64,000 bases of DNA, from contig CAZQLY010000005.1 of the NCBI GenBank assembly GCA_964594455.1, positions 1,682-65,681 on the forward strand, given 5' to 3'. How positions within the stretch are numbered: position 1 is the stretch's first letter; the number at the start of each line of letters is the position of its first letter. This DNA is from an uncultured Gammaproteobacteria bacterium. GTDB taxonomy: Bacteria; Patescibacteriota; Patescibacteriia; JAHIZJ01. Position numbers and translations under genes: made by a program. This document shows positions 17,514 through 56,838 of this stretch, one piece after another. The notes beneath the pieces were generated by a model that saw nothing but the letters and a program-made list of their open reading frames with translations, had not been told where the DNA came from and ran no database searches.

Positions 17514-17546
17514 CCCGCCTCGACTTGCCGGTCTCGGCGAGGCGGG
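17514..17546 (-). repeat. GC-rich hairpin element (CCCGCCTCG-N15-CGAGGCGGG) inserted in the D-stem of the outer tRNA-Gln copy
   Basis: Perfect 9-bp inverted repeat. Same family as 40578-40648, 56798-56829 and degenerate copies at 32676-32700 and 34933-34959. Confidence 0.7.
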
Positions 17547-17570
17547 CGATCCGGCAGCAATGCAGGCAAC

Positions 17571-19112
17571 TTATCCGACCACCTTCCCACCAAAGGCTTC
17601 TAAAACCGGATCAATACTATCCTCAGTATCGGTTTCCGATTCAGTTTGCCCTTCTATTAAGACCGTGTCAACCTTCATCGCTTGGCCATATACATTTTTC
17701 AACACCTTTTCAATCCGACTGCTTAGCTTGGCTTGTTTAATTTGGTCCGCGTGAAAAGCATAATTACAACCCAGTATTAAGGTATCCCCCTCTATTTTTT
17801 CAGGTGTAACTACTTGGAATATAAGTGCCAAGGAATGATTTTCTTTCTGCATTCCTTTTAGTACCTCGCCCCACTGCGCCTTGACGTCTTCCAGGCTCAT
17901 CTTCAAATTAGCCGATTTCGATTTGCTAACAGATGTAGATTTTGGACTAATTGTATTCTGGCTGATTTTTGGGGTTGTTGACTCGGATGGCTCATCGGGC
18001 TCATTACTATCATCTCCAGTTTCACAAATTTCCACGATGGCAAGTTCTATGGGCAGCTGGGTAATATCAGAATATTTTATCTCTCTCTCTTTGTTGAGAA
18101 AGAGATTAATCGCTTTTGTCAAACGATCGAGTTCGATATTCTTCGCTTGATCAATGGCCGATTTTTCCAACTCTTGAGTAAGCTCCATGGAAGTGAAGAT
18201 GTCTAACCGACCGTTGACCTTGATCAGCAAAATCTTGCGCAAAAATTCAACTAGCTCTTTTGTAAACTGGATAAAGTTGATCCCCTCTTGTGCCAAGTTG
18301 TTAACCAAATCCAGAGCTTCTCCAGTTTTGCGTCCAGCCAAGAAATCAAAAAGCTTAACAATAGATTCTATGTTGGATCGCGGTAAAACCAAATCAGCCA
18401 TTTCTGCGGTGATCTTTTTATCTCCCAGGGTTAAAATTTGCCCCAATAGACTTTCAGCGTCACGGGCTGAGCCCTCGGCCATGCGGGCAACATTCTTCAG
18501 TATGCTTTCGTCTATTTTAATCTTCTCCTTGCTAACGATTGAGCTTAAGCGTTTAACTAGATCCGCTTGGTTTATTTTTTTGAAATCAAATCTCTGGCAT
18601 CGGGAAACGATAGTATCAGGTAAACGATGGATTTCTGTAGTGCATAAAATAAATATCGCGTACTCAGGAGGTTCTTCTAGAGTTTTCAGAAGCGCGTTAA
18701 ACGCAGCTAAGGACAACATGTGCGCTTCATCAATTATAAATACTTTATATTGCCAGCGGGACGGAGTGAAACGAGCGTTTTCTATAATATTGTCTCGGAC
18801 ATTGTCTACTCCAGTATGAGAAGCCGCGTCCATTTCAATCAAGTCCAGGGATCTGGCTGACAATATATCCTGGCAAGACTCGCAGGTACCACAAGGTTCA
18901 CTTTGATTATCTTTTCTTTTCTGACAATTGATGGCTCGAGCCAAAAGCCGGGCCGTGGTAGTCTTGCCCACTCCCCGGGGGCCAGCAAATAAATAAGCAT
19001 GGGCCAGTCTTTGACTGGTAATTTCATTTTCTAGAGTAATCTTAACGTGATTCTGGCCCAGCAGGTCGGAAAATGTCTGGGGTCTATATTTTCGATATAA
19101 TGTTTGAGACAT
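17571..19112 (-). CDS. dnaX: DNA polymerase III subunit gamma/tau
   Basis: YRPQTFSDLLGQNHV...AYLFAGPRGVGKTTTARLLA Walker A, CxxC zinc module, and SRC motif. Confidence 0.9.
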   Translation of the reverse strand: MSQTLYRKYRPQTFSDLLGQNHVKITLENEITSQRLAHAYLFAGPRGVGKTTTARLLARAINCQKRKDNQSEPCGTCESCQDILSARSLDLIEMDAASHTGVDNVRDNIIENARFTPSRWQYKVFIIDEAHMLSLAAFNALLKTLEEPPEYAIFILCTTEIHRLPDTIVSRCQRFDFKKINQADLVKRLSSIVSKEKIKIDESILKNVARMAEGSARDAESLLGQILTLGDKKITAEMADLVLPRSNIESIVKLFDFLAGRKTGEALDLVNNLAQEGINFIQFTKELVEFLRKILLIKVNGRLDIFTSMELTQELEKSAIDQAKNIELDRLTKAINLFLNKEREIKYSDITQLPIELAIVEICETGDDSNEPDEPSESTTPKISQNTISPKSTSVSKSKSANLKMSLEDVKAQWGEVLKGMQKENHSLALIFQVVTPEKIEGDTLILGCNYAFHADQIKQAKLSSRIEKVLKNVYGQAMKVDTVLIEGQTESETDTEDSIDPVLEAFGGKVVG

Positions 19113-19225
19113 AAGCGTTGTACCTCCTTATGATTTTAACAACTCCTGCGATATAGTGCAAAAAACCATCTAAATAGCGCACCTCCCTAACAAGGTGCCT
19201 ATTCTTAATATTTCTTTATTTATAT

Positions 19226-19837
19226 TTATTCGTCTATTTTTTCAATTTCTGAAGACGCCTCTTCAGTTGGTTCGTCGGCTGACAGGCCGTTTTTATTTAT
19301 TTCAGCTTTCTTAATAATATTTTCCACAGCCGCCCATTTACTATCTTTTTCTTTGGGTACCAGTATAACGGCCTCGTCCCCGGATTCACCTTTGAAATAA
19401 GTTATGCTTGCCAGCAACACTCGGTAGCTTTTATTGTTTGCCAATACCCGAAATTCGCTTGTCTGTTCATCTCGGGTCAGGGTGCCGATTAAGCGCTGTC
19501 TCTCAGCTGGGCCGATTTGTTTATAGACAAACGATCCGTCAGGGGTAATGGTCAACTTAAGAGTGTCCCCTTCAACGAGTTTTGATTTTGACGCATAATT
19601 GGCCGGTACAGAATATTGCTTTCCATCCGGTCCAATCATATTCTGTCCGTCAAACATTCCTTCTATTATTTTTCCTTCAGCGCCTTCTTCTATCTTACCT
19701 TCTATCTTTTCTATCTCCGGCTCGTCAGACAAATCATCTCCACCTAATTCAGCCAGCAGCTGTCTGGCAACTTGGATGTTTGTTTGGGCGTTTTCTAGGG
19801 CATCTTTTATTTTAGAAATTTTTTTTGGTTCGGACAT
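19226..19837 (-). CDS. Hypothetical acidic protein
   Basis: ORF with good coding periodicity. No recognisable family. Confidence 0.4.
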   Translation of the reverse strand: MSEPKKISKIKDALENAQTNIQVARQLLAELGGDDLSDEPEIEKIEGKIEEGAEGKIIEGMFDGQNMIGPDGKQYSVPANYASKSKLVEGDTLKLTITPDGSFVYKQIGPAERQRLIGTLTRDEQTSEFRVLANNKSYRVLLASITYFKGESGDEAVILVPKEKDSKWAAVENIIKKAEINKNGLSADEPTEEASSEIEKIDE

Positions 19838-19929
19838 TTTCTTTTCAGATTTATTTCTAAATTTGAGGTTTTATTATACTTTTGTGTTGCTTTAGCTCAA
19901 AATTTAGTATATCATATATTGCCGGTTCG

Positions 19930-20463
19930 TCAATTTTTTTCATACATATAAATTGGTATGTTAGTGGAGGCGGGGCGGCTTATTTGTGTCGCTTTCAGAT
20001 CAGGGAAAGAAAAACTGTATGAGGCAAATCTACAGCCTGAACGCATCTCGGCTGCAACCTTTGGCTGTAGTTTTTTCATTGCTTTGGGAGTTAAGAAACA
20101 AACAATTGCATCAGCTGATCCAAAATCTGCATTAAAGAAGTTTTGATATTTGATAACAACTTGCTTATTGGTGCCAGAAAGCCTGACTCTTAGCAGCGAC
20201 CACAAATAATGGAACAATGATAATTCATATCCTACACCTTTGACATTATATTTTTTGGCAGCTGAAATAAGCAGCCGCGCATCACCACAACCCAGGTCAA
20301 TCAATAATTCCCCCGGCTGCAGACGCACGGTATTCAATAAACGTTCGACGTCCTGGCGTCTAGTCGGTAGCCAAGGTGCGGCCGACAAGCTGGCTAACAT
20401 GGCCATACCGAAAACCACGACCACAATAACCAAATAAACTATTAAAAAAGGAGTAGTCAACAT
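19930..20463 (-). CDS. Class I SAM-dependent methyltransferase with N-terminal TM helix
   Basis: LIDLGCGDARLLISAA SAM-binding motif I. N-terminal hydrophobic helix. Confidence 0.6.
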   Translation of the reverse strand: MLTTPFLIVYLVIVVVVFGMAMLASLSAAPWLPTRRQDVERLLNTVRLQPGELLIDLGCGDARLLISAAKKYNVKGVGYELSLFHYLWSLLRVRLSGTNKQVVIKYQNFFNADFGSADAIVCFLTPKAMKKLQPKVAAEMRSGCRFASYSFSFPDLKATQISRPASTNIPIYMYEKN

Positions 20464-20492
20464 ACTCCCATTATAGCAGATATTATTATGAC

Positions 20493-23030
20493 TTACATTT
20501 TTGATTCGGAGCCCATAGCCGTATCAGCTGACGTGCTCGGAGCACCTAGTTTGCTTCGTTCGCTTATTTCCGTTTCAACGATGCTTTTTTTTTGGCCATA
20601 CTTCATACGTGACATCTCTCTTAACCGAACAGCCAACTCTTTGTCACCTGGTACTGGCGGCAATGTCTGCATATTGAAGGCTCGAGCCGGCTGATTGTCG
20701 ATCAGCAGCTTAACATACGCGTTGTATTTTTCGATATTTTGGGCATCGTATTCATTAAATACCGGCGCAAATATCTTTCCGACGGTTTGAGCGTCTTCAA
20801 CTCCCACCTTGAACGATATAATTGTTCCGGCATTACCCAGAACCGCATCGCGTATTTTGGTATCACTCCCCTGAACCAGCTGGCCGATGTATTGATGACC
20901 AAAAATAAGATTTAGCCGATACTTCCTGGCCTCGGACAATATTGTAGCAATGCTGTCAGTAATAAAATTCTGAAACTCGTCTATATAAAGATAGAAATCG
21001 GGTCGTTGCTCTTCAGGTAGTCCGGCTCGGGCCAAAGCAGCCATTTGTAACTTTGAAACAATTATCAGCCCCAGAAGCTGGCTATTGACTTCTCCGGTTT
21101 TGCCCTTAGACAAATTCACCAACAAGATCTTGCGTTTGTTCATTATATCTTTAAAACTAAAGCCCGAGTGAGACTGCCCGATGATATTTCTCATCATTTC
21201 GTTTTCTACGAATCGCCCTACTTTTGAAATCAGATAACCCAGCATTTCTGATTTATGAAAATCAGTGGTCTTAGCCATTTCTTTTTCCCAGAAGTTTCGC
21301 ACCACCGGGTCTGTGACTTTGGCTAGCCGCTGTCGCTGATAGGCCGGGTCGGTAAACATCCGCGGTATTTCAACGATCGTACCGGGCCGCTCTCGATCCG
21401 CCATCAAGGTTAGCATGACGTTTCTCATATTATGTTCAAACATCGGCCCGATCATTTCTGGCGGGAATAATTTATAGAAAATCGCGATCATTTCCTGAAC
21501 CGCGAAATCTCTTTCTTCTGGCGTTTCAGCTTCAAGCATATTCAAACCAATCGGACGCTCCAGGTCAGAAGGGTTGAATAATATTAGGTCTTCCATTCTC
21601 TCTTTTGGAATATGGCTTAGTATGTCTTCAATTAAATCACCGTGCGGGTCAACTACACATACGCCTTCGCCGTTCTGAATATCCTGAATGGCCATATTGT
21701 TTAACAAGACTGACTTACCCACCCCGGACTTACCGAGCATATAGACGTGTCGGCGCCGATCATCTTTTTTTATCTTTACCAAGACCTCTCGACCACGATA
21801 TTCACTTTTACCTAAAACAATACCCTCAGTAGGAAGACTTACGGGTGGAGCCGAACGCTTGGCTAAAGACCAGCGGATATTTGGGGTTTCTGTTTCAGCT
21901 AGAGGTAAATGGAAGATGCTAGTTAATTCTTCGCTATTTAAAATAAATCTGTTTCGATTATTAAAGTTCCGGTAGATAAAATCGTGCAAAAATCTTTCTT
22001 TTCGTAAAAGCCTGACTTTGCGAAAACCATTGCCTACCTCCTGGGCAGTATATTGGGAAAAAGTATTCACAATATTATCCAAATACACCTGGGCCCGATC
22101 TGAATCTTGGGCTGAGACTACGATCCTGATATTAGTTTCAAAGGCAAATTTGCTGGCTTTTTCCCCTACCGATTTTATTTTTTCTTCTTCCATCGGCGAC
22201 ATACGATACATGCGTTCTTTTTCCAATTCTTTCTGCTCTTGATCCTGGCTGGGGAAAGCTGACTTCATGACTTCGTTCATCACCCCACCGCTATCACCCT
22301 TGCCTCTGATAATCTTCCTAGCATAGGCCTGGGCTTTGGATTGCCAGCCAGCCGGAGCGGGCCTAATCAAAATCTGTATGGCCGCACCTTCTGGTTCGCT
22401 AATCTTACTTAAGACATTTGTCAGAGCGCTCATTGGATCAGCTTCCATCTTGGCATATGTACGAATGGGAAATAAATTTGACTTAGTCAGCTTCAAATAA
22501 CAACCTTGGATAATTCCCTGAGGTGAAAAGATGTTATAATCCTCAGCTTCATCTATTTCTGCTTCCGGGTAGATCGCATGTATTTGCTGTTCCACAAACT
22601 GCTGATGCTTGCGCGGTACGGCAAAGAAAAAAGAAACAAATCCTTGATAGGCTACAATTTCTACCCCGATATGATCCTGCCTGCCATAAAACAATCGATA
22701 ATACCATTTCTGCCTGATGATACCTCCGAGATTGGCATAGAGAGATTCGGCCACTGACATCATTTCTTTTATTCCGCCTTGAGAACGTTGGGTCTGTTCT
22801 TCTAATTCTAAATGTTCTTTGGGTACTGTGACCAACAACACTACGCGCTGAAAAGCATCGGGCAGCTTACCCGAAGAGATCAATATCTTTCGTAAGATGT
22901 AAACCAGTCCACCCAAAGCCACTAGAACCCCTAAGCCGATGAGTAGGCCAAACATAATATTATTGCCGGCTTCAGAATCAACACCGGCAGCATTTGTAAC
23001 ATTGGGTAGGGTAACTAAGAGAGTTAGCAT
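20493..23030 (-). CDS. Membrane-anchored P-loop NTPase of the FtsK/HerA/TraD-VirD4 (type IV coupling protein-like) superfamily
   Basis: N-terminal TM helices. Walker A GKSGVGKS, Walker B FYLYIDEF, and ARKYRLNLIFGHQ (Arg-finger/sensor region typical of VirD4/HerA-type ATPases). No other secretion components nearby. Confidence 0.5.
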   Translation of the reverse strand: MLTLLVTLPNVTNAAGVDSEAGNNIMFGLLIGLGVLVALGGLVYILRKILISSGKLPDAFQRVVLLVTVPKEHLELEEQTQRSQGGIKEMMSVAESLYANLGGIIRQKWYYRLFYGRQDHIGVEIVAYQGFVSFFFAVPRKHQQFVEQQIHAIYPEAEIDEAEDYNIFSPQGIIQGCYLKLTKSNLFPIRTYAKMEADPMSALTNVLSKISEPEGAAIQILIRPAPAGWQSKAQAYARKIIRGKGDSGGVMNEVMKSAFPSQDQEQKELEKERMYRMSPMEEEKIKSVGEKASKFAFETNIRIVVSAQDSDRAQVYLDNIVNTFSQYTAQEVGNGFRKVRLLRKERFLHDFIYRNFNNRNRFILNSEELTSIFHLPLAETETPNIRWSLAKRSAPPVSLPTEGIVLGKSEYRGREVLVKIKKDDRRRHVYMLGKSGVGKSVLLNNMAIQDIQNGEGVCVVDPHGDLIEDILSHIPKERMEDLILFNPSDLERPIGLNMLEAETPEERDFAVQEMIAIFYKLFPPEMIGPMFEHNMRNVMLTLMADRERPGTIVEIPRMFTDPAYQRQRLAKVTDPVVRNFWEKEMAKTTDFHKSEMLGYLISKVGRFVENEMMRNIIGQSHSGFSFKDIMNKRKILLVNLSKGKTGEVNSQLLGLIIVSKLQMAALARAGLPEEQRPDFYLYIDEFQNFITDSIATILSEARKYRLNLIFGHQYIGQLVQGSDTKIRDAVLGNAGTIISFKVGVEDAQTVGKIFAPVFNEYDAQNIEKYNAYVKLLIDNQPARAFNMQTLPPVPGDKELAVRLREMSRMKYGQKKSIVETEISERSKLGAPSTSADTAMGSESKM

Positions 23031-23032
23031 GA

Positions 23033-23566
23033 TTAATCTTTATGCTGCTTGATAGCAATGATTTTATCAGTTTTGATTTTGGCTTCCTGTTCTAAGAAAT
23101 ACTTATTCATTCCGGGGATCAACCTTAACCAATTTTTGATAACCGATAAAATATTTTTTACTCTTATCTTAGTTTCTTGAAGTAAGGTTTCAATTTTGCC
23201 TGCAGCCTCTTCACCAGCTTTTTTAAATCTTTCTCTCTCCTCTTCGCTCATTTGCAAATATATGTCTTTAAGATCCTCCTCCAATATGGTTTCCACCTGT
23301 TGGTAGGTTTCTGATTTGGCGGGAGATTGAACTGGTGTTTGGGCTGGGGTGGGCGTCGTCTGACTGGGAGCTTCTTTAGACTCTTCAATTTTTTCGGCTG
23401 TGCGTTCTGGCTCGGGTTCTTGTTCAGTTTTCGTTTCAACAGGCTTTTCTATTTCAACATGCCGGGGCTGTTCACTGGGTTGCTCCGGCCGCTTTCCTGC
23501 TTCACCAAAAATATCTTCTACTTTTGGTTTATTTTCTTTTTCTTTATTGGGATCCATTTTTTTCAT
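23033..23566 (-). CDS. Hypothetical Pro/Glu/Lys-rich protein
   Basis: Low-complexity acidic/proline-rich N-terminal two-thirds with a structured C-terminal about 50 aa. 2-nt gap to the upstream ATPase gene. Confidence 0.35.
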   Translation of the reverse strand: MKKMDPNKEKENKPKVEDIFGEAGKRPEQPSEQPRHVEIEKPVETKTEQEPEPERTAEKIEESKEAPSQTTPTPAQTPVQSPAKSETYQQVETILEEDLKDIYLQMSEEERERFKKAGEEAAGKIETLLQETKIRVKNILSVIKNWLRLIPGMNKYFLEQEAKIKTDKIIAIKQHKD

Positions 23567-23623
23567 TTATAGTATATCACAATATCGCCATTTTTACAAG
23601 TTAGATGTTTATCAGCTTTGGTA

Positions 23624-23652
23624 TTGACAAAACGGTTTCCTTGTGATATTAT
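23624..23652 (+). promoter_or_regulatory. Sigma70-like promoter (TTGACA-N17-TATTAT) ahead of the GC-rich lipoprotein gene
   Basis: Consensus -35 at 23624-23629 and -10 at 23647-23652. Strong SD GGAAGGAGGG before the ATG at 23710. Confidence 0.4.
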
Positions 23653-23709
23653 GCTTGGTTACTGTGGGCTAGATGCATTGATTTCAACTCCCGGAAGGAG
23701 GGATTCAAA

Positions 23710-24288
23710 ATGTACCGGAAGAATCATTTTTCGTTCTTTGTTTTCGTCTTCGGCGCAGCCCTTCTTCTACAGGGTTGCGCTGGTGGCATTCGTGGTTTCG
23801 CCGCAATCGGAATCAATCCAGTTGGCCTCTTCTGTGGCACCACCCTGACCATCAAAGACGGGCAGTACTATCGGTATCTGTCCGACGAGCAGATCAGCGA
23901 GGAAGGTAACCTTACCACCTACGCGGTCAAGCCGATCGGCACGATCCGGAGACGACTGGACTTTGGTGTTCGACCTGATCCTCCGCATGGCATGTTCGTT
24001 TACCGCGTCGAATGGCGCAACTCACAACATGATCATTGGCGTGAGATCGGCCATCAGCGTCACGGAGACAATCCTTACCAATTCAGCATGGGGCGTCGAG
24101 CCATTGGCTCAATCCAAGCTGAGGTCAGGGTGATCTACCGTTACGCTACTGTGGCGCCATCTACATCAGGAGATATGGTCATCGTCAACTCGACTCCAGA
24201 AGACCGGAACACGATCAATCCGGACGACAAAATCGTCCACTACTTGATCCCGATCACATTCGCTCACAGCTATTGCGACCTCAACTAG
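23710..24288 (+). CDS. Lipoprotein (lipobox LLQGC), unknown function, on a GC-rich compositional island
   Basis: Signal peptide plus LLLQGC lipobox. Local GC is clearly higher than the flanks. Own promoter and terminator. Confidence 0.5.
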   Translation: MYRKNHFSFFVFVFGAALLLQGCAGGIRGFAAIGINPVGLFCGTTLTIKDGQYYRYLSDEQISEEGNLTTYAVKPIGTIRRRLDFGVRPDPPHGMFVYRVEWRNSQHDHWREIGHQRHGDNPYQFSMGRRAIGSIQAEVRVIYRYATVAPSTSGDMVIVNSTPEDRNTINPDDKIVHYLIPITFAHSYCDLN

Positions 24289-24305
24289 GCCGCCTAGCCT
24301 GACTC

Positions 24306-32597: not shown

Positions 32598-32625
32598 ACG
32601 TAGGCGAACAAGCGCTTGTTCGCCT
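32598..32625. repeat. Perfect 28-nt palindrome GTAGGCGAACAAGCGCTTGTTCGCCTAC between dnaK and the DUF3467 gene
   Basis: Exact dyad symmetry. No flanking T-run on either strand. Confidence 0.5.
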
Positions 32626-32675
32626 ACGGTTATATTTCAATTTATTTTCGTATATTGTACCTCTCCACAAGCCTG

Positions 32676-32700
32676 CCCCGCCGCATGGCGGGAGTCGAGG
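32676..32700. repeat. Degenerate member of the GC hairpin family (CCCCGCC-GCAT-GGCGGG followed by AGTCGAGG)
   Basis: Shares the CCCGCC/GGCGGG arms and the GTCGAGG motif with the tRNA-associated hairpins. Confidence 0.35.
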
Positions 32701-34932: not shown

Positions 34933-34959
34933 TCAACCCATGCCCCGCCTCGATTCAGA
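34933..34959. repeat. GC hairpin family member (CCCCGCCT-N12-AGGCGGG) between hsp20 and the small ORF
   Basis: 7-bp GC arms identical to the tRNA-associated hairpin arms. Conspicuously GC-rich against AT-rich surroundings. Confidence 0.4.
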
Positions 34960-34981
34960 TCAAGGCGGGAATATTGACCGA

Positions 34982-40099: not shown

Positions 40100-40435
40100 A
40101 TGTCACCACGACCATACAAATTAAGGCATGTTCGCCATCAACCAGGCGCCACCTATTATAAACCTCGTGGCATACCCATGCGCCAGTTGGAAGAGGTGAT
40201 CCTAACTATTGATGAAAACGAGGCCATCAGGCTGAAAAACTTGGAAGGTCTGGACCAAACAGATTGTGCGGCAAAGATGAAAGTCTCTCAGAGTACTTTT
40301 CAGCGAATCTTGGTTTCTGCCAACAAAAAAATCGCTGATGCGCTAACAAACGGCAAAGCGATAAAAATAGAGGGTGGAAACATTAAATTACCGAGAGGCT
40401 TTGGGCGCCGACATCGGCACCGTGGCTGGCAATAA
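40100..40435 (+). CDS. DUF134 (UPF0251) predicted DNA-binding protein
   Basis: PRGIPMRQLEEVILTIDENEAIRLKNLEGLDQTDCAAKMKVSQSTFQRILVSANKKIADALTNGKAIKIEGG matches the DUF134 consensus. Confidence 0.6.
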   Translation: MSPRPYKLRHVRHQPGATYYKPRGIPMRQLEEVILTIDENEAIRLKNLEGLDQTDCAAKMKVSQSTFQRILVSANKKIADALTNGKAIKIEGGNIKLPRGFGRRHRHRGWQ

Positions 40436-40443
40436 ACAGTCTC

Positions 40444-40518
40444 TGGTGACCCCACGGGGAGTCGAACCCCGATTGCCAGGTTGAGAACCTGGTGTCCTAA
40501 CCATTAGACGATGGGGCC
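40444..40518 (-). tRNA. tRNA-Glu (anticodon CUC), intact
   Basis: Minus-strand GGCCCCATCGTCTAATGGTTAGGACACCAGGTTCTCAACCTGGCAATCGGGGTTCGACTCCCCGTGGGGTCACCA. All stems pair and CCA is encoded. Confidence 0.85.
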
Positions 40519-40569
40519 ATGATTAGGGCTTTAATATTCTCTATATCTTTGTGTTTCTAAATCCAAGCG

Positions 40570-40666
40570 TGTCCTAACCCGCCTCGCCCGACTTGCGCGA
40601 GCGAGTCGAGGCGGGCCCAGCCTCGACTTGCCGTCTTGGCGAGGCAGGCCATTAGACGATGGGGCC
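40570..40666 (-). pseudogene. 5' fragment of tRNA-Glu (positions about 1-26), duplicated 51 nt upstream of the intact gene and interrupted in the D-loop by two tandem GC hairpin elements
   Basis: GGCCCCATCGTCTAATGG-[33-nt hairpin][38-nt hairpin]-TTAGGACA, then diverges (CGCTTGG instead of CCAGGTT). Confidence 0.55.
40578..40648 (-). repeat. Two tandem GC hairpin elements (40578-40615: CCCGCCTCG-N20-CGAGGCGGG; 40616-40648: CCTGCCTCG-N15-CGAGGCTGG, a degenerate copy)
   Basis: Same arms and loop core (GACGGCAAGT) as the copies at 17514-17546 and 56798-56829. Confidence 0.65.
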
Positions 40667-40715
40667 ATGAATAACTTGACTCAGTGTATTGTAATTTGGG
40701 CTAAACGTCAATACT

Positions 40716-41744
40716 CTATTTCTTGGCTTTTAACTTTCTTCCTACATAAGCCGTCATATCGGCCAGACGGACTGAATAAGCCCACTCATTATCATACCAG
40801 GCTACCACTTTTACCAAATCGCCATCAATTACTTTGGTCAGCTCTAGATCAACAATACCGGAAAAAGAATTGCCAATATAGTCTGAGGAAACCAATGGTT
40901 CATCTGAGACGCCCATAATGCCTTTGTATTTGGGATTCTTTGAGGCATTAACTATGGTTTTATTCACTTCTTCTACTGTAACCTTTTTCTTTAACAGCAT
41001 GGTGAAATCTGATATGGAAACAACGGGCGTTGGAACACGGATTGCCATACCGTCAAAATGGTTTTTTAATTCTGGAATAGCTTCGGTCACGGCTATAGCT
41101 GCACCTGTACTGGTTGGCACAATACTCTCGGCTGCTCCCCTAGCCCGACGTAAATCCTTGTGCGGTCCGTCCTGAAGGTTCTGATCAGCCGTATATGAGT
41201 GCACTGTGGTCATGAAAGATTTCTTAACACCATATTTATCATTTAGCACTTGGATCACCGGCGCTATACAATTTGTGGTGCATGAACCCATATTGATCAC
41301 CGGCTCGCCTTTGTATTTTTTTTCATTAACTCCCAACAAAAGTGTGGGGACTCCTTGGCCTTTGGCTGGAGCTGAAATAATTACTTGCTTGGCGCCAGCC
41401 TTAATGTGCTGGGCTGCTTCTTCTTTGGTCCTGAACCTTCCAGTACATTCCAGCACTACATCTACTCTCAAGCGTTTCCAGGGCAGCTTAGCCGGTTCTT
41501 TGATGGCATACACTCTAATCGACTTACCATCTATTACTAAATTGTCTTTTCTGGCCTTGACTGTCTTGTTATACAAACGATAACTGGTATCGTGCTGTAA
41601 TAAATGAGCCAAGGTGGCTGGATCTGTTAAATCATTGATAGCAACAACTTGAACATTGTTCTTTTCCATCAAGGCTTTAAAGGTGGTGCGGCCAATCCGG
41701 CCAAAGCCATTGATGGCTACTCTGACTGGTTGTGTTTTTTTCAT
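40716..41744 (-). CDS. gap: Glyceraldehyde-3-phosphate dehydrogenase
   Basis: VAINGFGRIGR N-terminal motif, catalytic SCTTNC, and length consistent with GAPDH. Confidence 0.9.
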   Translation of the reverse strand: MKKTQPVRVAINGFGRIGRTTFKALMEKNNVQVVAINDLTDPATLAHLLQHDTSYRLYNKTVKARKDNLVIDGKSIRVYAIKEPAKLPWKRLRVDVVLECTGRFRTKEEAAQHIKAGAKQVIISAPAKGQGVPTLLLGVNEKKYKGEPVINMGSCTTNCIAPVIQVLNDKYGVKKSFMTTVHSYTADQNLQDGPHKDLRRARGAAESIVPTSTGAAIAVTEAIPELKNHFDGMAIRVPTPVVSISDFTMLLKKKVTVEEVNKTIVNASKNPKYKGIMGVSDEPLVSSDYIGNSFSGIVDLELTKVIDGDLVKVVAWYDNEWAYSVRLADMTAYVGRKLKAKK

Positions 41745-50355: not shown

Positions 50356-50675
50356 TTTTTATTCCTCCGTTCTTTAATATGCAAGGGCAATAATTGTTGC
50401 TGACCTTGTAATTTTTTGGCCAAACGACGACCCATAGGTGTCAGCTTTACTTCTCTGATAAACCACTTATGAGGCGTCCGCCGGCCAAACCCGATCATTA
50501 ATTCTTTATCTATTAAACGTTCCAAACTTTTTGTAATGATGTTTTGCTGGTCCCCTTTTTTTGGTTTTTTTGATTGGGAATTATAAAACCTGTTGATTCC
50601 CTGGCGTGAATATACTTTTTCCTTACTAGTATAAACCTCTACTAGGATAAATTTTTGAAGCGGCGAAAGCCTCAT
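50352..50675 (-). CDS. Small basic hypothetical protein (possibly a wHTH-type DNA binder)
   Basis: 107 aa, Lys/Arg-rich. Overlaps its neighbours by 4 nt on each side. Confidence 0.3.
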   Translation of the reverse strand: MRLSPLQKFILVEVYTSKEKVYSRQGINRFYNSQSKKPKKGDQQNIITKSLERLIDKELMIGFGRRTPHKWFIREVKLTPMGRRLAKKLQGQQQLLPLHIKERRNKK

Positions 50676-52090
50676 TCTGGTTTATCAATTTTGATGCCTA
50701 ACTCCCTGAGCTGAGCTGGTTTTACTTTTGAGGGAGCTCCCATCATCGGGTCACGAGCCTCGCTGGTCATAGGAAAGGCGATCATTTCTTTTACACTTGG
50801 TTCATTCAAGATTGCCATCAGCAAACGCTCTATACCTGGTGCGATTCCACCGTGGGGAGGAACTCCATAAGTAAAGGCGGTTAAAAGATGGCGAAACTGC
50901 TTTTTCTGATCTTTGTCAAAACCGATTATGTCAAAAACTTTTTCTTGAACCTCTGGCTGATGAATTCTGATGCTGCCGCCGCCCACTTCTAAGCCGTTAA
51001 GAACCAAATCGTGCTGATAGGAGCGAACTTTGGCTGGATCGCTGTCTAACAAAGGAATATCTTCCTCTTTTGGAGCAGTAAACATATGATGGCTCGGCGC
51101 CAGTTGGGATTCACCTGCCCCGTGGAAATAATCATCTTTGGTTTGCTTGACGAACAGTGGGAAATCTATCACCCAAGCAAAAGCTAATTCATTTTTATCG
51201 TTTTTATTCTTTCTTAAGTCAGGCTTATCTGAATTATGCTTCTTCATCGCTTCAGTATGAGTCAACCGCGGCCAAGGTATCTGGGTAATCTTTTTTTCAG
51301 GAAAAATCTGCTTGACCATTTCCGTAAACATTTGTTCGACCAGCTGCAAGATATCTTCTTGGGTCACAAAAGCCATTTCAATATCCAGCTGATAAAACTC
51401 ACCGGGACTGCGATCAGCTCGCGCCGCCTCATCTCTAAAGCACGGTGCTATTTGAAAATACCTTTCAAAACCAGCTACCATTAATAACTGCTTGTACTGT
51501 TGAGGTGATTGAGGTAAGGCAAAGAACTTTCCTTTGTGAACCCGTGATGGCACTAAAAAGTCACGCGCACCTTCAGGTGTTGATTTAGACAAAATCGGAG
51601 TTTGGATTTCGACAAACCCTTGCTGGCTCAGCTGATCCCGAAAGAATTGCGTCATCTGATGGCGCTTGGTAATATTATTCTTCATCCTTTCGTGACGGAG
51701 ATCCAAGTAGCGATGTTTCAATCTTAATTCTTCTGAGGCTTGGCGCTCTTCGTTGACTATTTCAAACGGCGGTGTTTTTGATTCGCTGATAATTGATAAT
51801 TCTTCAGCATTAACTTCAACCTTGCCGGTCAGCAAATTGGAATTAACATTCTTTTTATCGCGTTCGACAACTTTGCCCGTGACAGTAATAACAAACTCTG
51901 GCCTGACTTTTCTGGCCTGTTCATAAGCTCCCTTGGTATCAGGTGAGCACACTACCTGGAGTAAACCATCTTTATCTCTTAAATCTATAAAGACTATCTT
52001 ACCCAACCGGCGCACGGTATGAGCCCAACCGGAAAAAACGGCTGACTTACCGACTAACTTATTGGCTTCACTGGAAAATACTCTTTTCAT
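50672..52090 (-). CDS. aspS: Aspartyl-tRNA synthetase, short form lacking the GAD insertion domain
   Basis: Class IIb motifs: QSPQQYKQLLMVAGFERYFQIAPCFRDEAARADRSPGEFYQLDIEMAF (motif 2) and a GGGSIRIH-type motif 3. At 472 aa there is no room for a GAD domain. Confidence 0.8.
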   Translation of the reverse strand: MKRVFSSEANKLVGKSAVFSGWAHTVRRLGKIVFIDLRDKDGLLQVVCSPDTKGAYEQARKVRPEFVITVTGKVVERDKKNVNSNLLTGKVEVNAEELSIISESKTPPFEIVNEERQASEELRLKHRYLDLRHERMKNNITKRHQMTQFFRDQLSQQGFVEIQTPILSKSTPEGARDFLVPSRVHKGKFFALPQSPQQYKQLLMVAGFERYFQIAPCFRDEAARADRSPGEFYQLDIEMAFVTQEDILQLVEQMFTEMVKQIFPEKKITQIPWPRLTHTEAMKKHNSDKPDLRKNKNDKNELAFAWVIDFPLFVKQTKDDYFHGAGESQLAPSHHMFTAPKEEDIPLLDSDPAKVRSYQHDLVLNGLEVGGGSIRIHQPEVQEKVFDIIGFDKDQKKQFRHLLTAFTYGVPPHGGIAPGIERLLMAILNEPSVKEMIAFPMTSEARDPMMGAPSKVKPAQLRELGIKIDKPE

Positions 52091-53382
52091 TATGGATGAA
52101 TTCGATTTATTAATCGTGGAAAAGGAATGGTTTCTCTAACGTGGTCAAGGCCGCAAATCCAGGCTACGGTTCTTTCAATGCCTATTCCAAATCCTGAATG
52201 CGGGAATGAGCCATAGCGCCGAAGGTCTAAATACCACTCGAAATCTTGGCGCGGAAGCTTGTGCTCTTTGATCCTTTTTTCTAATAATTCTAAATTATCT
52301 ATTCGCTGAGAACCACCAATTATCTCGCCATATCCTTCAGGAGCTATCATGTCGTCATTCAGAACCAAATCTGGGTTTTCAGGGTCTGGTTGCATATAAA
52401 AAGCTTTTATCTTGGCCGGATAGTTGGTTATGAAAACTGGCTTGTCATATTGCTTGGACAGTACTGTTTCTTCGTCACCACCGAAATCATCCCCCATTTT
52501 TACTTTCATCCCGGCTTTTTGTAATTTTTCTATCGCTCCTTTATAAGTTATGCGGTTAAATGGGGCTTTGATTTTTTGCAATGGTTTAATATCACGTTCT
52601 AATGTTTCTAAATCATTCTGGCTTTCTTTTAAGACATTCTGGATTACATAGCTGATCATATCTTCTTGAATTTTCAGATTGCCTTCGTGATCCACAAAAG
52701 CCGCTTCAGCATCCAACATCCAGAATTCAGTCAGATGACGCCTAGTCTTTGACTTCTCAGAACGAAATGTCGGACCGAAATCGTATACCCTGCCCAAAGC
52801 TGCGGCCGTAGCTTCAATATACAACTGTCCGGATTGGGCTAGATACGCTTGAGTATTAAAATAATCTGTTTGAAAAAGCGTGGTCGTACCCTCACAAGAA
52901 GTCGGAGTTAGAATCGGCGAATCGGTTAAGACAAACCCATTCTCCTTAAAAAACTTGCGCAGCTGCCAGATTACTTCATCGCGAATACGCAAAATAGCTG
53001 TTTGACGCTTGGAGCGCAGCCAGAGATGACGATTATCCATCAAAAACTCAGTTCCGTGCGATTTTTTGGAGATGGGATAATCTTCGGCTATCTGAACGAC
53101 TTTAACCTCTTTGGCGTCCATTTCATAGCCAAAAGGCGAGCGTTTATCAGCCCGCGCCTGGCCCGTGATCTCGACTGAACTCTCCATAGTCATTTTTTGA
53201 CAAGCTTCCCAGGCTCCCCCTGAAACTTCTTTTTTTGAAACCACTACTTGAATCCGGCCAGTACCATCTCGAAATTGTAAAAAAAAGATACTGCCCGAGG
53301 AGCGTATGTTAAATACCCAACCTTTAAGCAGTACCTCCTTTTTTAAATTCTGCGCTATATCTGAAACTGGAATATATGACAT
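52090..53382 (-). CDS. asnS: Asparaginyl-tRNA synthetase
   Basis: GPTFRSEKSKTRRHLTEFWMLDAE (AsnRS-type motif 2) and a GFGIGIERTV-type motif 3. 430 aa. Confidence 0.8.
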   Translation of the reverse strand: MSYIPVSDIAQNLKKEVLLKGWVFNIRSSGSIFFLQFRDGTGRIQVVVSKKEVSGGAWEACQKMTMESSVEITGQARADKRSPFGYEMDAKEVKVVQIAEDYPISKKSHGTEFLMDNRHLWLRSKRQTAILRIRDEVIWQLRKFFKENGFVLTDSPILTPTSCEGTTTLFQTDYFNTQAYLAQSGQLYIEATAAALGRVYDFGPTFRSEKSKTRRHLTEFWMLDAEAAFVDHEGNLKIQEDMISYVIQNVLKESQNDLETLERDIKPLQKIKAPFNRITYKGAIEKLQKAGMKVKMGDDFGGDEETVLSKQYDKPVFITNYPAKIKAFYMQPDPENPDLVLNDDMIAPEGYGEIIGGSQRIDNLELLEKRIKEHKLPRQDFEWYLDLRRYGSFPHSGFGIGIERTVAWICGLDHVRETIPFPRLINRIHP

Positions 53383-53418
53383 TTATAGTATGTGTTAATC
53401 CACCCAATTATAGCGATT

Positions 53419-54051
53419 TTACGACTGTTTGTCAAAATCAACCCGGTGTCTATTCTTTTTCCAAAGAACGGCTATTATTACCCCAATTATAGTACCTAGT
53501 AAATTCCACATTAAGTCATCAGCTGTATCAAAAAGGTCTGTAACTCGGTGGGTTGGGAAAAAGCTATCGCCAACAAACTCTGAAATCTCATAAAGAACCG
53601 ATAAAAGCACCACTAGAGCTACCGTGACTAAGTGCCTTAACCAAACTGGCATAAATATTAATCCTCTTTTATCTAATTCATACAGAATTATCCAAACTAC
53701 AACCGCCGGAGCAATGGAACTAACACCATGAGCTAATTTGTCCCACCAAAGAATGTCACCAAATAAATGCAAGAAATTACCCATGGCATCAGCCCAAATA
53801 CTCATAGCCACCAGCCAAGATGCGATCCAGGGAAGAATGATGCCCCTTTTTTTCAGTTTCAAAAATACAATCAGATATACTCCCCCTCCCACGATGTTGG
53901 TGACCGACAAAGCTACTTGCCTGGAATAACTATCATAATGCGTAGCCAGCTCAATAACTAACAATACTACCAGAGACAAAAAAGCTACAAAAGTTAAAAT
54001 ATTATTTCTTTTCATGAGGGGCATGTGTATACCTATATTTGATAATTTCAA
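53419..54051 (-). CDS. Integral membrane protein
   Basis: Six hydrophobic helices. Overlaps the P-type ATPase gene end by 50 nt. Confidence 0.35.
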   Translation of the reverse strand: MKLSNIGIHMPLMKRNNILTFVAFLSLVVLLVIELATHYDSYSRQVALSVTNIVGGGVYLIVFLKLKKRGIILPWIASWLVAMSIWADAMGNFLHLFGDILWWDKLAHGVSSIAPAVVVWIILYELDKRGLIFMPVWLRHLVTVALVVLLSVLYEISEFVGDSFFPTHRVTDLFDTADDLMWNLLGTIIGVIIAVLWKKNRHRVDFDKQS

Positions 54052-56683
54052 TAAAGAAGATAACTATGAACACCCCAATTCCTATTACACCCCAATGACC
54101 CAGGTTTAATGGAACCGTTTTTAAAATGTTCTGTAGGAATGGTGTGTAAATAGCAGCTAACTGCAGAAAAGCGGCTGCTACGACCGCAATGATCAGCCAT
54201 GGGTTGGTAAGTGGGTTACTTTTCAATATTGAGGTCTTAAGTGATCGACAGCTGTAGACATAAAAAAGTGAGTCTATAGCAACCAACGTAAATGTCATAG
54301 TACGCGCCAATTCTAGATCACCTTGATAATGCCAATAATAATAAAAAATAGCTAAACCCATCAAGCCAGAAATTAGACTCGTTGCAATTATTAAGGTTTT
54401 TATCTCTGAATTAATGATAGGGGCCTTACGATGAATCGGCGGTCTAGACATAACATTTTTCTCACCCGGATCAACGGTAAGTGCAATATCAGGAAATCCA
54501 TCAGTAACAAGATTTACCCAAAGAATCTGGGCAGCCAGTAACGGCAAGGGCATACCTACAATTAATGCTCCGACTATTATAACTACTTCCGAAAAGCTGT
54601 CAGAAAGTAAATATAAAACAACCTTACGGATATTTTCAAAAACCACCCTGCCTTGCCGAACAGCTGAAACTATCGTATTGAAATTATCATCCAAAATGAC
54701 AAGACTGGCGGTTTCTTTCGTAATATCAGTGCCAGAACCAATCGCTACTCCGATATCAGCCGAGCGTAAAGCCGGAGCATCGTTAACTCCGTCCCCTGTC
54801 ATGGCTACGACTTCTCCATTAGCTTGCCAGGCGTCTACTATTCTCAATTTATCTTTAGGAGTAACCCGCGCATAAACCGAAATATCTTTTACCTTTTTCT
54901 GTAGCTGTGTATTATTCAAATTTTCCAAATCGCTACCCTCAATAATATTTTCTGACTTGGCTGGCAGGCCTAATTCCTGGGCAATCGCCTGGGCAGTTAA
55001 TTTATGATCACCGGTTATCATGACAGTTTTTATGCCGGCTTTGTTACACAGTGATATAGTCTCCTTAGCTTCCTTACGAAGCGGGTCTTTAATACCCATT
55101 AAACCAACAAAAACAAAATCCTCATACAAACTTGGTTTCTCTTCAAGTTTTTTCATGTCGGCGGCCGCCGGCTTATAGGCTAGAGCAATAATTCTTAACC
55201 CCTTGTTGCTCAGATATTCATAACGTTTTTGCAATTTTTTTCGACGCTGCGAACTTAGGCTCTCAATCTTGCCGTCAATATCCACCCGATCTGACATTTC
55301 CAACACTTTCTCCGGCGCTCCTTTCATTAAAACTATATTATGGGTTTTTGTGTCCTTATGCAGTGTCATCATAAACTTGCGCTCAGAATTAAACTGTATC
55401 GTATCTATTCTGGGTTTAACTTTTTCCAAATTGCTCCGGTTAAGACCAAAAGTACTGCCCGCTAGAATTAACGCTTTTTCCGTTGGGTTGCCAAAAATTA
55501 CCCAGTTTTTCAAATCACTGTATTCATTTTCGATATGTGCGTCATTGCACAATACACCAATCTCCAATGCACGCATATAACTAGCGTGCTGGCTGATCTC
55601 TTTTATATGCGTTTTAAACTTGTCCGAATCTGTATCAAAATCCTGGTTATTAGTTATGATCCGAGCAACTCTCATAGAGCCTTCAGTCAACGTCCCTGTT
55701 TTATCGGTACAGATGACTGTGGTCGAACCCAGTGTTTCAGCCGCCACTAATTTTCTAACTAGCCCCTTGCGTTTTAGTATCCGTTGCATACCAATAGCTA
55801 AAATAACAGTAACGCCCACGGCTAAACCTTCAGGTATCGCAGCAACTGCAATGGCCACAGATGTGGTGAACATTTCAGTGAATCCATGATTAGTTAACAT
55901 TCCGACACCAAAAATAACCAGGCTGATTAATAAAATAAAACCGCCCAGAAACTTACTCATAGATGACAAGCGCTTCTGTAAGGGGGTTTGCTCCTCCTTA
56001 GTTTCTTTGATTAATTGGGCAATCTTACCCAGCTCAGTTTCAATGCCAATATGGCAAACAACTCCCCTAGCCTGACCGCTTACCACGGTGGTACCCATAA
56101 AAGCCATGTTTACCCGATCAGCTAAAACTAATTCATCGGTGAGTGTTTTAGCGTCTTTGGAAACAGGGTGCGACTCTCCTGTTAGCCTAGCTTCATTAAT
56201 CTGCAGATTTGCGGATTCTAATAAACGAACATCAGCGGGCACCTTATCACCCGGCTCTAATGATATAACATCTCCTGGAACCAGGCCTTTGATATTAACG
56301 GATTTTTCTTCACCATCACGGATAACAAGTGCATTAAAATGCACTATTTTTTTTAGTTTTTCCATGGCTCGCATTGCCCGGTTTTCCTGAATAAAGCCAA
56401 CTATTATATTAATTACCACCGCAGCTAATATTACATACATGTCAACGTGGTCATCTAGCAATAAACTTATTCCAGCTGCAAAAAGTAAAATATAAACTAG
56501 AGGGCTGTTAAACTGCCTTAAAAACAAAATAATCCGGGAAGCCTTTTGCTTCTCTGGCAATGAGTTCGGTCCATACTTTTCCTGTCGAGCTTTTACTTCC
56601 TTTTCGGTCAAGCCAGTTTTTCTGGTCTTAAGAAGCTCAAAGACTTTTGTTTGATTTAGGTTGTACCAGGCCTGGGTTGTCAT
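54002..56683 (-). CDS. Cation-transporting P-type ATPase (P2-type, Ca2+-ATPase-like)
   Basis: DKTGTLT phosphorylation motif, TGES-like actuator motif, MITGDH, GDGVNDAPAL, and 10 TM helices. 893 aa. Confidence 0.8.
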   Translation of the reverse strand: MTTQAWYNLNQTKVFELLKTRKTGLTEKEVKARQEKYGPNSLPEKQKASRIILFLRQFNSPLVYILLFAAGISLLLDDHVDMYVILAAVVINIIVGFIQENRAMRAMEKLKKIVHFNALVIRDGEEKSVNIKGLVPGDVISLEPGDKVPADVRLLESANLQINEARLTGESHPVSKDAKTLTDELVLADRVNMAFMGTTVVSGQARGVVCHIGIETELGKIAQLIKETKEEQTPLQKRLSSMSKFLGGFILLISLVIFGVGMLTNHGFTEMFTTSVAIAVAAIPEGLAVGVTVILAIGMQRILKRKGLVRKLVAAETLGSTTVICTDKTGTLTEGSMRVARIITNNQDFDTDSDKFKTHIKEISQHASYMRALEIGVLCNDAHIENEYSDLKNWVIFGNPTEKALILAGSTFGLNRSNLEKVKPRIDTIQFNSERKFMMTLHKDTKTHNIVLMKGAPEKVLEMSDRVDIDGKIESLSSQRRKKLQKRYEYLSNKGLRIIALAYKPAAADMKKLEEKPSLYEDFVFVGLMGIKDPLRKEAKETISLCNKAGIKTVMITGDHKLTAQAIAQELGLPAKSENIIEGSDLENLNNTQLQKKVKDISVYARVTPKDKLRIVDAWQANGEVVAMTGDGVNDAPALRSADIGVAIGSGTDITKETASLVILDDNFNTIVSAVRQGRVVFENIRKVVLYLLSDSFSEVVIIVGALIVGMPLPLLAAQILWVNLVTDGFPDIALTVDPGEKNVMSRPPIHRKAPIINSEIKTLIIATSLISGLMGLAIFYYYWHYQGDLELARTMTFTLVAIDSLFYVYSCRSLKTSILKSNPLTNPWLIIAVVAAAFLQLAAIYTPFLQNILKTVPLNLGHWGVIGIGVFIVIFFIEIIKYRYTHAPHEKK

Positions 56684-56778
56684 AGCTTTTTTATTATACC
56701 AAAATATTGCCTTTCTTTCAATTATAGGCTCTTGCCAAATAATATTTATTCTGCTAGTATAGGAAAAGTTTCAAACAC

Positions 56779-56838
56779 GCGCCGTTAGCTCAGTTGGCCC
56801 GCCTCGCCGAGACGGCAAGTCGAGGCGGGTAGAGCAGT
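56779..56838 (+). pseudogene. 5' fragment of tRNA-Lys (positions about 1-26), duplicated 254 nt upstream of the intact gene, with a 32-nt GC hairpin inserted in the D-loop after G18G19
   Basis: GCGCCGTTAGCTCAGTTGG-[hairpin]-TAGAGCAGT is identical to 57093-57119 apart from the insert. Similarity also extends about 5 nt upstream (CAACACGC). Confidence 0.55.
56798..56829 (+). repeat. GC hairpin element CCCGCCTCG-CCGAGACGGCAAGT-CGAGGCGGG
   Basis: Perfect 9-bp inverted repeat. Family member. Confidence 0.7.

Follow-up and report, generated by a model that had tools for sequence, protein, structure and literature searches.

Short GC-rich palindromic hairpins in tRNA gene relics of a Patescibacterium, at one site beside a minimal GIY-YIG nuclease gene

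The present study deals with a 64,000-nt stretch of contig CAZQLY010000005.1 (hereafter the window) and with a family of GC-rich hairpins found in it. All four copies of the hairpin lie in the D-arm of partial 5' copies of tRNA genes (Gln, Glu and Lys), as had been noticed in a first-pass annotation, and no intact tRNA of the window carries such an insert. That annotation missed the gene for a very small GIY-YIG nuclease at the Lys site, as well as a downstream 3' half that matches the Gln fragment. It also missed that the partial copies appear to be relics, left behind by cassettes that bring in a replacement tRNA segment. The order of relic with hairpin, nuclease gene and intact tRNA recurs in other genomes. 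The hairpins are best explained as copies of an insertion element that is palindromic, GC-rich and only 32-38 nt long, a non-autonomous selfish DNA common in Patescibacteria-type genomes. We put the combined picture of cassette and palindrome at roughly even chances. The descriptive core, i.e. the anatomy, the identity of the nuclease, the recurrence of the layout and the distribution and contexts of the palindrome, is held with much more confidence than any function of the hairpin as a plug.

The window has a GC content of about 42%, and the closest named relatives of its DnaK (83-89% identity) are labelled Patescibacteria group bacterium; judged from sequence, the organism is a Patescibacterium. 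Identity of the hairpin with the Coxiella QMITE, an idea prompted by the GC content of about 42%, was dropped because the closest named DnaK matches come from Patescibacteria. Hairpins with the exact arms CCCGCCTCG...CGAGGCGGG were found at 17514-17546, 40578-40615 and 56798-56829. The copy at 40616-40648 has one mismatch per arm against the consensus and forms 8 of 9 pairs, so that the perfect 9-bp arms earlier ascribed to all four copies hold for three of them. The loop core GACGGCAAGT, which had been described for all four copies, is present in the Lys copy and in the 33-nt Glu copy; the Gln copy has it with one extra C, and the longer variant of 38 nt at 40578-40615 lacks it. The interior of this variant is longer and more symmetric, and it resembles the 39-42-nt variants of other genomes. 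A search of the whole window, with filters off and a covariance model of 32 variants, gave the four copies as significant and no others (56.6 bits for 56798-56829, 54.8 for 17514-17546, 51.6 for 40616-40648 and 27.6, E 7e-4, for 40578-40615). The proposed stem-loops fold as DNA at -7.3 to -13.4 kcal/mol: -12.2 kcal/mol for the Lys copy 56798-56829 (z -3.2), -12.9 for the Gln copy 17514-17546 (z -3.95), -13.4 for the 38-nt copy 40578-40615 (z -2.6) and -7.3 for the imperfect copy 40616-40648 (z -1.8).

The probability that the hairpins arose by chance, are ordinary terminators or come from a faulty assembly is practically negligible. The bare arm pattern does occur by chance in high-GC genomes, but 100 shuffles of the window gave 0 matches, and 96 metagenome loci, with 34-53% GC, carry almost the same 32-nt core. 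No T-run follows any of the hairpins, and a terminator scan flags 0 of 4. As regards an artefact, the Glu relic and its hairpins are reproduced identically in a Logan contig from run SRR7048224, which is possibly the same data set as the window; this contig stops inside the second Glu hairpin, because repeats break assemblies.

The Lys locus is laid out as follows.

56732..56760, + strand, promoter-like site TTGCCA-17-TAGTAT, with TG, just 5' of the tRNA-Lys relic
56774..56797, + strand, tRNA-Lys relic part 1, -5 to position 19, ending in G18G19
56798..56829, + strand, 32-nt hairpin in the Lys relic D-loop, both arms perfect (9 bp)
56830..56838, + strand, tRNA-Lys relic part 2, positions 20-28, TAGAGCAGT
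56845..57102, + strand, intact GIY-YIG nuclease gene, 85 residues, minimal Slx1/UPF0213 type
57093..57168, + strand, intact tRNA-Lys(UUU), 72.6 bits
57176..57190, + strand, terminator-like hairpin and T-run closing the unit

Freed of its hairpin, the Lys relic agrees with the intact gene at 33 of 33 nt (-5 to +28). The nuclease open reading frame (ORF) occupies the gap between relic and tRNA, with its start 16 nt past the hairpin. It overlaps tRNA-Lys by 10 nt (57093-57102), its stop codon TAG being tRNA positions 8-10, and therefore an RNase P cut at +1 of tRNA-Lys would leave the nuclease mRNA without a stop codon. At the homolog loci the nuclease stop lies 3-7 nt ahead of the tRNA. A promoter scan of 56600-57300 gave one further + site 5' of tRNA-Lys, inside the nuclease ORF (56911-56939), and no site directly in front of the intact tRNA-Lys. 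The site at 56732..56760 is presumed to be the original tRNA-Lys promoter, which would now drive relic, nuclease gene and tRNA.

The nuclease matches PF01541 (E 1.8e-11) as a single domain spanning residues 3-71. A profile of 43 homologs finds the UPF0213 protein 1zg2 best (E 2.8e-14) and then eukaryotic SLX1 (about 1e-5), ahead of I-TevI and UvrC. The predicted structure, with a predicted local distance difference test score (pLDDT) of 92.9, is one compact GIY-YIG fold, and its best fold matches are again UPF0213 1zg2 and Slx1. Y5, Y16, G18, R26 and H30 are invariant among the 43 homologs and E62 is near-invariant. Profile and structure prediction thus place the ORF at 56845-57102 in the Slx1/UPF0213 branch of the GIY-YIG superfamily. 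Libraries of defence systems and of phages gave no match to the nuclease.

The Glu locus has the same arrangement of relic and intact gene, with two hairpins in tandem and a short spacer.

40683..40711, - strand, promoter-like site TTGACG-17-TACACT, 5' of the tRNA-Glu relic, the sole promoter-like site in 40350-40800
40649..40673, - strand, tRNA-Glu relic part 1, -7 to position 18, ending in TAATGG
40616..40648, - strand, 33-nt hairpin with 8/9 arm pairs, first of the tandem pair in the Glu relic D-loop
40578..40615, - strand, 38-nt hairpin variant with perfect 9-bp arms, second of the tandem pair
40569..40577, - strand, tRNA-Glu relic part 2, positions 19-27, TTAGGACAC
40519..40568, - strand, spacer of about 50 nt without ORF, from the relic to intact tRNA-Glu
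40444..40518, - strand, intact tRNA-Glu(CUC)

Here the hairpin-free relic agrees with the intact gene at 33 of 34 nt (-7 to +27). In both the Lys and the Glu case the promoter-like site stands directly upstream of the relic, and none stands directly before the intact tRNA. We infer that the spacer at 40519..40568 is a decayed cassette.

At the Gln locus the old gene has been split.

17547..17556, - strand, old tRNA-Gln positions 1-10, TGCCGGATCG
17514..17546, - strand, 33-nt hairpin with perfect arms, after position 10 of old tRNA-Gln
17491..17513, - strand, old tRNA-Gln from position 11 to about 33, up to the anticodon loop
17321..17490, - strand, inserted segment of about 170 bp with imperfect GC-rich inverted repeats CCCGGCCCGC.../...GCGGGGCGGG, boundary +/-1-2 nt
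17372-17443, - strand, intact tRNA-Gln(CUG) inside the inserted segment
17281..17320, - strand, 3' half of the old tRNA-Gln (anticodon loop through 3' end)

The acceptor strand TCCGGCA of the old 3' half pairs with the relic 5' end TGCCGGA. When the old halves are joined, with the hairpin and the segment of about 170 bp deleted, ARAGORN calls a 72-nt tRNA-Gln(ctg); it follows that a segment with an intact tRNA-Gln of different sequence broke the old gene apart at the anticodon loop. Old and new tRNA-Gln have unlike acceptor and T stems. The insertion points given earlier for Lys and Glu, after G18G19, were borne out, and the Gln insert, earlier placed between positions 9/10/11 of the D-stem, follows position 10.

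At Lys and Glu the hairpins went in cleanly, and the target sequence is neither duplicated nor short of any base. The inspection for target-site duplications proposed with the first-pass annotation therefore yielded none, and removal of the hairpin leaves clean tRNA sequence. The inserts at the three sites measure about 50, 170 and 255 bp, and the GIY-YIG gene is the sole ORF in them. A Pfam scan of 18 neighbouring ORFs of the window revealed no integrase and no transposase. The earlier general description holds, namely that of a mobile palindrome similar to REP and MITE, rich in GC within a genome richer in AT (REP, repetitive extragenic palindromic element; MITE, miniature inverted-repeat transposable element). 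Of the two formal features of a MITE, the arms supply the inverted repeats but target duplication is absent, so the element is not a MITE in the strict sense.

The same features bear on the view that the relics are attL-type scars of deleted integrase-mediated elements, with the hairpins derived from the element ends. Duplicated tRNA segments around inserted DNA are a hallmark of tRNA-targeting integrative elements, and the inserts at Gln and at another locus (L207; L and P numbers are our handles) are bounded by inverted repeats. However, the inserts are 50-260 bp long, no integrase or recombinase is present among the genes scanned beside the three sites, and the 5' end is duplicated instead of the usual 3' end. 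The recombinase gene and 3'-end duplication that mark an integrase-type element are thus both lacking here. In addition, the hairpin lies inside the duplicated segment without a target duplication. We regard this origin as highly unlikely.

The layout seen at Lys is not confined to the window. A profile search retrieved 51 small GIY-YIG homologs, mostly from Patescibacteria metagenome-assembled genomes (MAGs), and the DNA around nine of them was taken by exact protein identity, a sampling independent of the hairpins. It was found that 8 of the 10 distinct GIY-YIG loci (window included) have a tRNA within about 80 nt, and that in 7 of 10 GC hairpins break up a partial or pseudo copy of a tRNA. 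In this protein-based sample no relic or pseudo copy adjoining a nuclease gene is free of such an interruption (7/7 have one), and the hairpins are unrelated and often stand two in tandem. In six loci the order is a partial 5' tRNA copy with one or more GC hairpins in the D-arm, the nuclease ORF and an intact tRNA of the same type.

window, tRNA-Lys
L121, tRNA-Tyr
L131, tRNA-Leu
L230, tRNA-Ser-tga
L234, tRNA-Ser-gct
L235, tRNA-Ser-gga

The nuclease proteins of the layout loci are 29-51% identical to that of the window. The hairpin families differ: L131 has a 52-nt hairpin, and the Ser loci have pairs of 13-19-nt hairpins such as CCAGCCCAAGGCTGG and TCCGCCCTGGGCGGA. At L122 the order is mirrored, with intact tRNA-Cys, nuclease and a 3' relic with hairpin. 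Two of the ten loci have no tRNA nearby. In one of these two (L236, 640-1000) the GIY-YIG homolog has inverted repeats CCCCCACACCAATTA / TAATTGGTGTGGGGG at its borders, which resemble those of the repeat-bounded, tRNA-carrying inserts at window Gln and L207.

The nuclease family as a whole comprises 30,986 sequence clusters at E<=0.001. Many of its database entries begin with N-terminal extensions that clearly are tRNA pieces in translation; at least 3 tRNA-derived 4-mers were found in 18 of 59 such extensions (shuffle mean 8.9; 1 of 200 shuffles reached 18). In P0004, P0009, P0013, P0182, P0278 and others the ORF calls begin in tRNA relics or upstream tRNAs, and the reading runs through the hairpins, as in the spurious extension MAELAPARHASQASLSCWRCGQGRAQ.

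Relics are frequent around these elements. The low-GC loci, 893 kb in all, contain 95 distinct tRNAs. A scan by 11-mers picked out 22 of these as candidates, with some false positives among them, and about 15 look like true relics by eye. The contigs had been selected for a hairpin or a nuclease gene, so the rate of relics is biased upward and gives no genome-wide estimate. In most of the approximately 15 relics a palindrome of one sort or another interrupts the D- or T-loop, and L229 has a full-length pseudo-tRNA with inserts in both loops.

Several of these loci have compound structures. At L205 (2593-2717) two near-identical tandem units, each with a partial 5' tRNA-Arg, a hairpin and a 35-nt spacer, precede intact tRNA-Arg, which suggests repeated events or amplification at one site. 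At L224 (708-1106) an intact tRNA-Ala is accompanied by two relics, the upstream 5' relic with a 15-nt hairpin TCCGCCATAGGCGGA in its D-loop and the downstream 3' relic with the 32-nt hairpin in its T-loop (GGTT|CGATTCC). L147 (two copies), L155, L200 and L216 contain a palindromic element of approximately 150 nt, which has inverted repeats GCCCCGTCACTTC at its ends and the 32-nt hairpin in the middle. These elements lie in the D-loop of 5' relics and the T-arm of 3' relics that flank intact tRNA-Ile or tRNA-Val.

Such relics could also have arisen in the reverse order. The palindrome would first enter the D- or T-loop of a functional tRNA gene, which would later be rescued by partial duplication, gene conversion or uptake, and the GIY-YIG gene would be incidental. 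This would suit the very short spacers without nuclease gene (13-15 nt at L213; 35 nt in both tandem units of L205), the lack of a nuclease gene at most hairpin-bearing relics and the full-length pseudo-tRNA of L229. The changed acceptor and T stems of the new tRNA-Gln are likewise as expected for an imported copy. On the other hand, a cell whose essential tRNA gene, probably the only copy, had taken up an insertion would have to survive until the rescue, and some relics are free of hairpins, which means that duplication can be independent of the hairpin. Coincidence is no explanation for six loci that have hairpins of different families and a nuclease ORF taking up precisely the space from relic to tRNA. 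We consider this order of events unlikely.

To follow the hairpin itself, metagenome copies were retrieved with a hairpin-specific pattern, in which the inner stem is fixed. The 96 loci share a near-invariant 32-nt core CCCGCCTCGCC-NN-GACGGCGAGTCGAGGCGGG. Variants of 39-42 nt occur in MAGs of Moranbacteria, Parcubacteria, Gottesmanbacteria and Saccharibacteria, mostly within long open frames, and also in single MAGs labelled Spirochaetia and Phycisphaerae. When the bare arm pattern was applied across genome contigs, the matches were mostly chance ones in high-GC genomes, and the low-GC MAGs gave the 39-42-nt variants. A scan of viral contigs gave no match.

The census of contexts that had been suggested earlier shows that the association with tRNA D-arms is real but not strict, as it had been called. 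All four window copies have it, and 19 of 96 metagenome copies lie at most 150 nt from an intact tRNA, whereas random placement within these loci gives 7.3% (p=7e-5); many other copies stand in contexts without a tRNA, and 34 of 96 lie in a frame that stays open over 40 or more codons to either side. After deletion of the hairpin, 8 of 88 junctions match a tRNA across the junction, against 5 of 780 controls. These tRNA-like junctions fall after position 18-19 or 21-22, or in the T-loop. Deletion in silico restored a callable tRNA in 0 of 96 copies. For some copies the site is the T-loop of a 3' relic or the interior of another palindrome, and both orientations relative to the tRNA occur. In the left flank A is avoided, and the end is G or C in 55 of 62 distinct contexts. 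In L195, L197, L220 and L221 the hairpin stands in the middle of the sequence gtcatcctgaRcgaagtgc | aaggatctc, which presumably resembles a widespread repeat often found 5' of GIY-YIG genes in other bacteria.

Protein genes are entered in frame as well. In the DnaK of three diverged contigs (L149 3421-3452, L150 644-675 and L210 2114-2145) the palindrome and one base make up an insertion of 33 nt, or 11 residues, at a conserved turn (AFTKEG-PPRLDGESRLG-ELLVG), and a FemAB-like gene (L165) is a second in-frame case. The hairpin-encoded peptides were absent from the 120 closest DnaK homologs, and no in-frame protein insertion was seen within the window.

An insertion guided by structure, as proposed in the first-pass annotation, receives weak backing. 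A duplex-energy test for insertion into the loops of existing hairpins was modestly positive (p=0.001). A stricter nested-stem test showed no enrichment at 4-5 bp, and at >=6 bp 8% vs 3% (p=0.03). The case for insertion into loops of existing hairpins is thus a weak one.

The retrieved copies also speak to a role of the hairpin in RNA. The hairpin could be selected as part of a functional leader, i.e. as a 5' stabiliser, a processing site, a translational regulator of the nuclease mRNA or a block on a relic that would otherwise compete in tRNA folding or RNase P cleavage. The promoter-like sites directly 5' of the relics make it probable that the hairpin is transcribed, and at six nuclease loci hairpins of different sequence occupy the same place. 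In the predicted Lys RNA the GC hairpin is followed directly by a 9-bp stem (56832-56856), in which the end of the relic would pair with the start of the ORF. The nuclease AUG (56845) lies on the 3' side of this stem and would be sequestered. However, the stem shows 0 compensatory pairs (the inner stem being fixed by the retrieval pattern), and pair 3-31 is unpaired in 20 of 31 variants. In the alignment of 32 variants CCAGCC...GGCGGG and CCCGCC...GGCTGG are common, and the compensated CCAGCC...GGCTGG was not seen. Uncompensated mismatches of this kind point to a copied DNA palindrome and not to a conserved RNA fold. The occurrence of both orientations, the abundance of the same element in coding regions and unrelated contexts, the absence of any Rfam match at the hairpins even at E up to 10, and the lack of terminator-like character also argue against a leader function. 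We give it a small chance only.

Our preferred reading is the combined one of cassette and palindrome. A small cassette would enter a tRNA gene carrying its own copy of the tRNA segment that it displaces. The tRNA gene would stay functional, and its old 5' piece and promoter would remain upstream as a relic. The Lys cassette, with its minimal Slx1-like nuclease gene, may be an 'alive' version, and those at Glu and Gln could be older, decayed or different ones. By analogy with free-standing homing endonucleases, the nuclease cassette could spread by homing-like break repair. Relic, hairpin, nuclease gene and tRNA would be transcribed as one unit. The palindrome, for its part, would insert cleanly and in either orientation, persisting only where it is tolerated, namely in relics, at in-frame protein sites and in other palindromes, and functional tRNAs would thus be without it. 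Once in the D-arm of a relic, the hairpin could break up the duplicated target and the 33-bp direct repeat, so that the relic would not be cut again and the cassette would not be lost by recombination. It is plausible that this plug is more than a passenger, since 7 of 7 nuclease-adjacent relics are interrupted, and by unrelated hairpins.

Several points weigh against this reading. A GIY-YIG gene was found near only about 8 of the 96 hairpin loci, which means that the palindrome is not an obligatory part of the nuclease cassette and that nuclease-free hairpin loci are many. A few relics are uninterrupted (the 3' relics of Phe at L207 and of Ile at L218, and the extension in P0278), and the Gln hairpin sits at the edge of the shared sequence and not in its middle. 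The intact tRNA retains the -5..+28 sequence of the relic, so that a homing enzyme guided by sequence alone would go on cutting the locus in which it resides, and the 85-residue nuclease has no DNA-binding module of the homing type. Some relics (L213, L205, L170) have spacers of merely 13-75 nt; that they are decayed cassettes is an assumption. Nuclease activity, transcription and mobility are in each case presumed, and the view of this genome covers 64 kb.

A stronger version would make relic and hairpin a working part of a tRNA-gene homing system, in which a structure-recognising nuclease mobilises palindromes similar to the Rickettsia palindromic elements (RPE) and the hairpin serves as an immunity mark. 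The nuclease would recognise the D-arm, the cloverleaf or an extruded DNA cruciform near G18-G19 and not a sequence. One small enzyme family could thus enter the genes for Lys, Tyr, Leu, three Ser and Cys tRNAs, GC palindromes would be inserted or captured at the cut, and the hairpin would make the relic uncuttable. A 2006 survey described the prokaryotic Slx1-like proteins as minimal standalone domains, one of them fused to a TrmH-like tRNA Gm18 methyltransferase (PMC1564403). Such a fusion would fit, G18 being in the D-loop that bears the hairpin, and we treat it as a lead and not as evidence. As a whole this version appears rather improbable.

Further palindromes and genes of the window deserve mention. 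Two hairpins in the heat-shock cluster had been described as degenerate relatives of the family, a membership that the covariance model does not bear out.

34944-34969, small GC hairpin CCCGCCTCG-ATTCAGAT-CAAGGCGGG, just 3' of hsp20, left arm in common with the family, E 0.27
32677-32692, small GC hairpin, 3' of dnaK, only CCCGCC/GGCGGG in common, E 1.7

On their sequences, membership is not demonstrable for the hairpin at 34944-34969, and the one at 32677-32692 is probably unrelated. The spacer between dnaK and dnaJ contains a perfect palindrome of 15+15 nt (32599-32628, CGTAGGCGAACAAGC/GCTTGTTCGCCTACG), which starts with GTAG on both strands in a REP-like manner and is unrelated in sequence to the hairpin family. 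In the region 3' of tRNA-Lys, a HEAT-repeat protein (57732-58253) has a weak PADLOC match to OloA (E 8e-5), and the ORF next to it (57234-57731, 165 residues) has no family match.

The anatomy is clear and was seen at several loci; the mechanism is a proposal. Patescibacteria, whose genomes are tiny, can probably spare few tRNA genes. If the combined picture is true, very small selfish cassettes have invaded and rebuilt their tRNA genes again and again, and the bare 85-residue Slx1-like nuclease family gains a concrete genomic role; we know of no settled bacterial function for this minimal family. It would also mean that a compact palindromic element is tolerated in frame by essential proteins such as DnaK. 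On the practical side, gene callers translate relics and hairpins into false N-terminal extensions of the nuclease. The literature searches yielded no description of the hairpin family or of the layout of relic, nuclease and tRNA, and a search under the names UPF0213, YhbQ and YazA returned almost only unrelated papers.

Several known systems share features with the one described here. In tRNA-targeting integrative elements with attL and attR sites, the displaced segment is likewise carried in, the gene is kept intact and a partial copy is left; here, in contrast, the inserts of 50-260 bp have no integrase, the 5' segment is duplicated and the relic is also interrupted by a palindrome. Phage T4 SegB is a free-standing GIY-YIG homing endonuclease encoded beside tRNA genes. 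The likeness is that the GIY-YIG gene adjoins a tRNA and that spread by double-strand break repair, with co-conversion of the flanks, is proposed. The protein here differs in being a bare 85-residue Slx1/UPF0213 domain, closer to the structure-specific Slx1 than to I-TevI and without a DNA-binding domain, and its gene is chromosomal, in Patescibacteria, and lies inside a tRNA gene between relic and restored gene.

For the palindrome, the mobile GC clusters of yeast mitochondria are also short GC-rich palindromes that spread in an AT-rich genome, sometimes within genes. They are, however, organellar, eukaryotic and unrelated in sequence, and to our knowledge they have no association with tRNA relics. 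The REP elements and the bacterial interspersed mosaic elements (BIME) are reportedly mobilised by RAYT transposases, as Di Nocera et al. are said to have described in 2013. Like REPs, the present elements are GC-rich imperfect palindromes of 20-40 nt in many copies, inserted cleanly without target duplication and found in tandem pairs. However, REPs have a terminal GTAG/CGTC tag, whereas the 32 variants here start with CCCGCC and end with GGCGGG, with flanks that lack the tag, and REPs are extragenic, whereas 34 of 96 copies here lie in open frames, including the in-frame cases in DnaK and the FemAB-like gene. The Pfam scan of the 18 window ORFs found no transposase, and thus no Y1 transposase of the RAYT type.

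The element is closest in kind to the RPE and less close to REP, the comparison being one of kind and not of sequence. The RPE, said to have been described by Ogata et al. in 2000, are reportedly about 100-150 nt long and lie in frame in protein genes. Both are short palindromic selfish DNA in a small AT-richer genome with no known transposase. Both occur in frame in protein genes, where they add a short peptide (here in DnaK and the FemAB-like protein of metagenome contigs), and also in RNA-gene sequence. The present element differs in its length of 32-42 nt as compared to about 100-150 nt, in its lineage, the Patescibacteria, and in its concentration in tRNA relics, where it interrupts the D- or T-loop, repeatedly beside small GIY-YIG genes.

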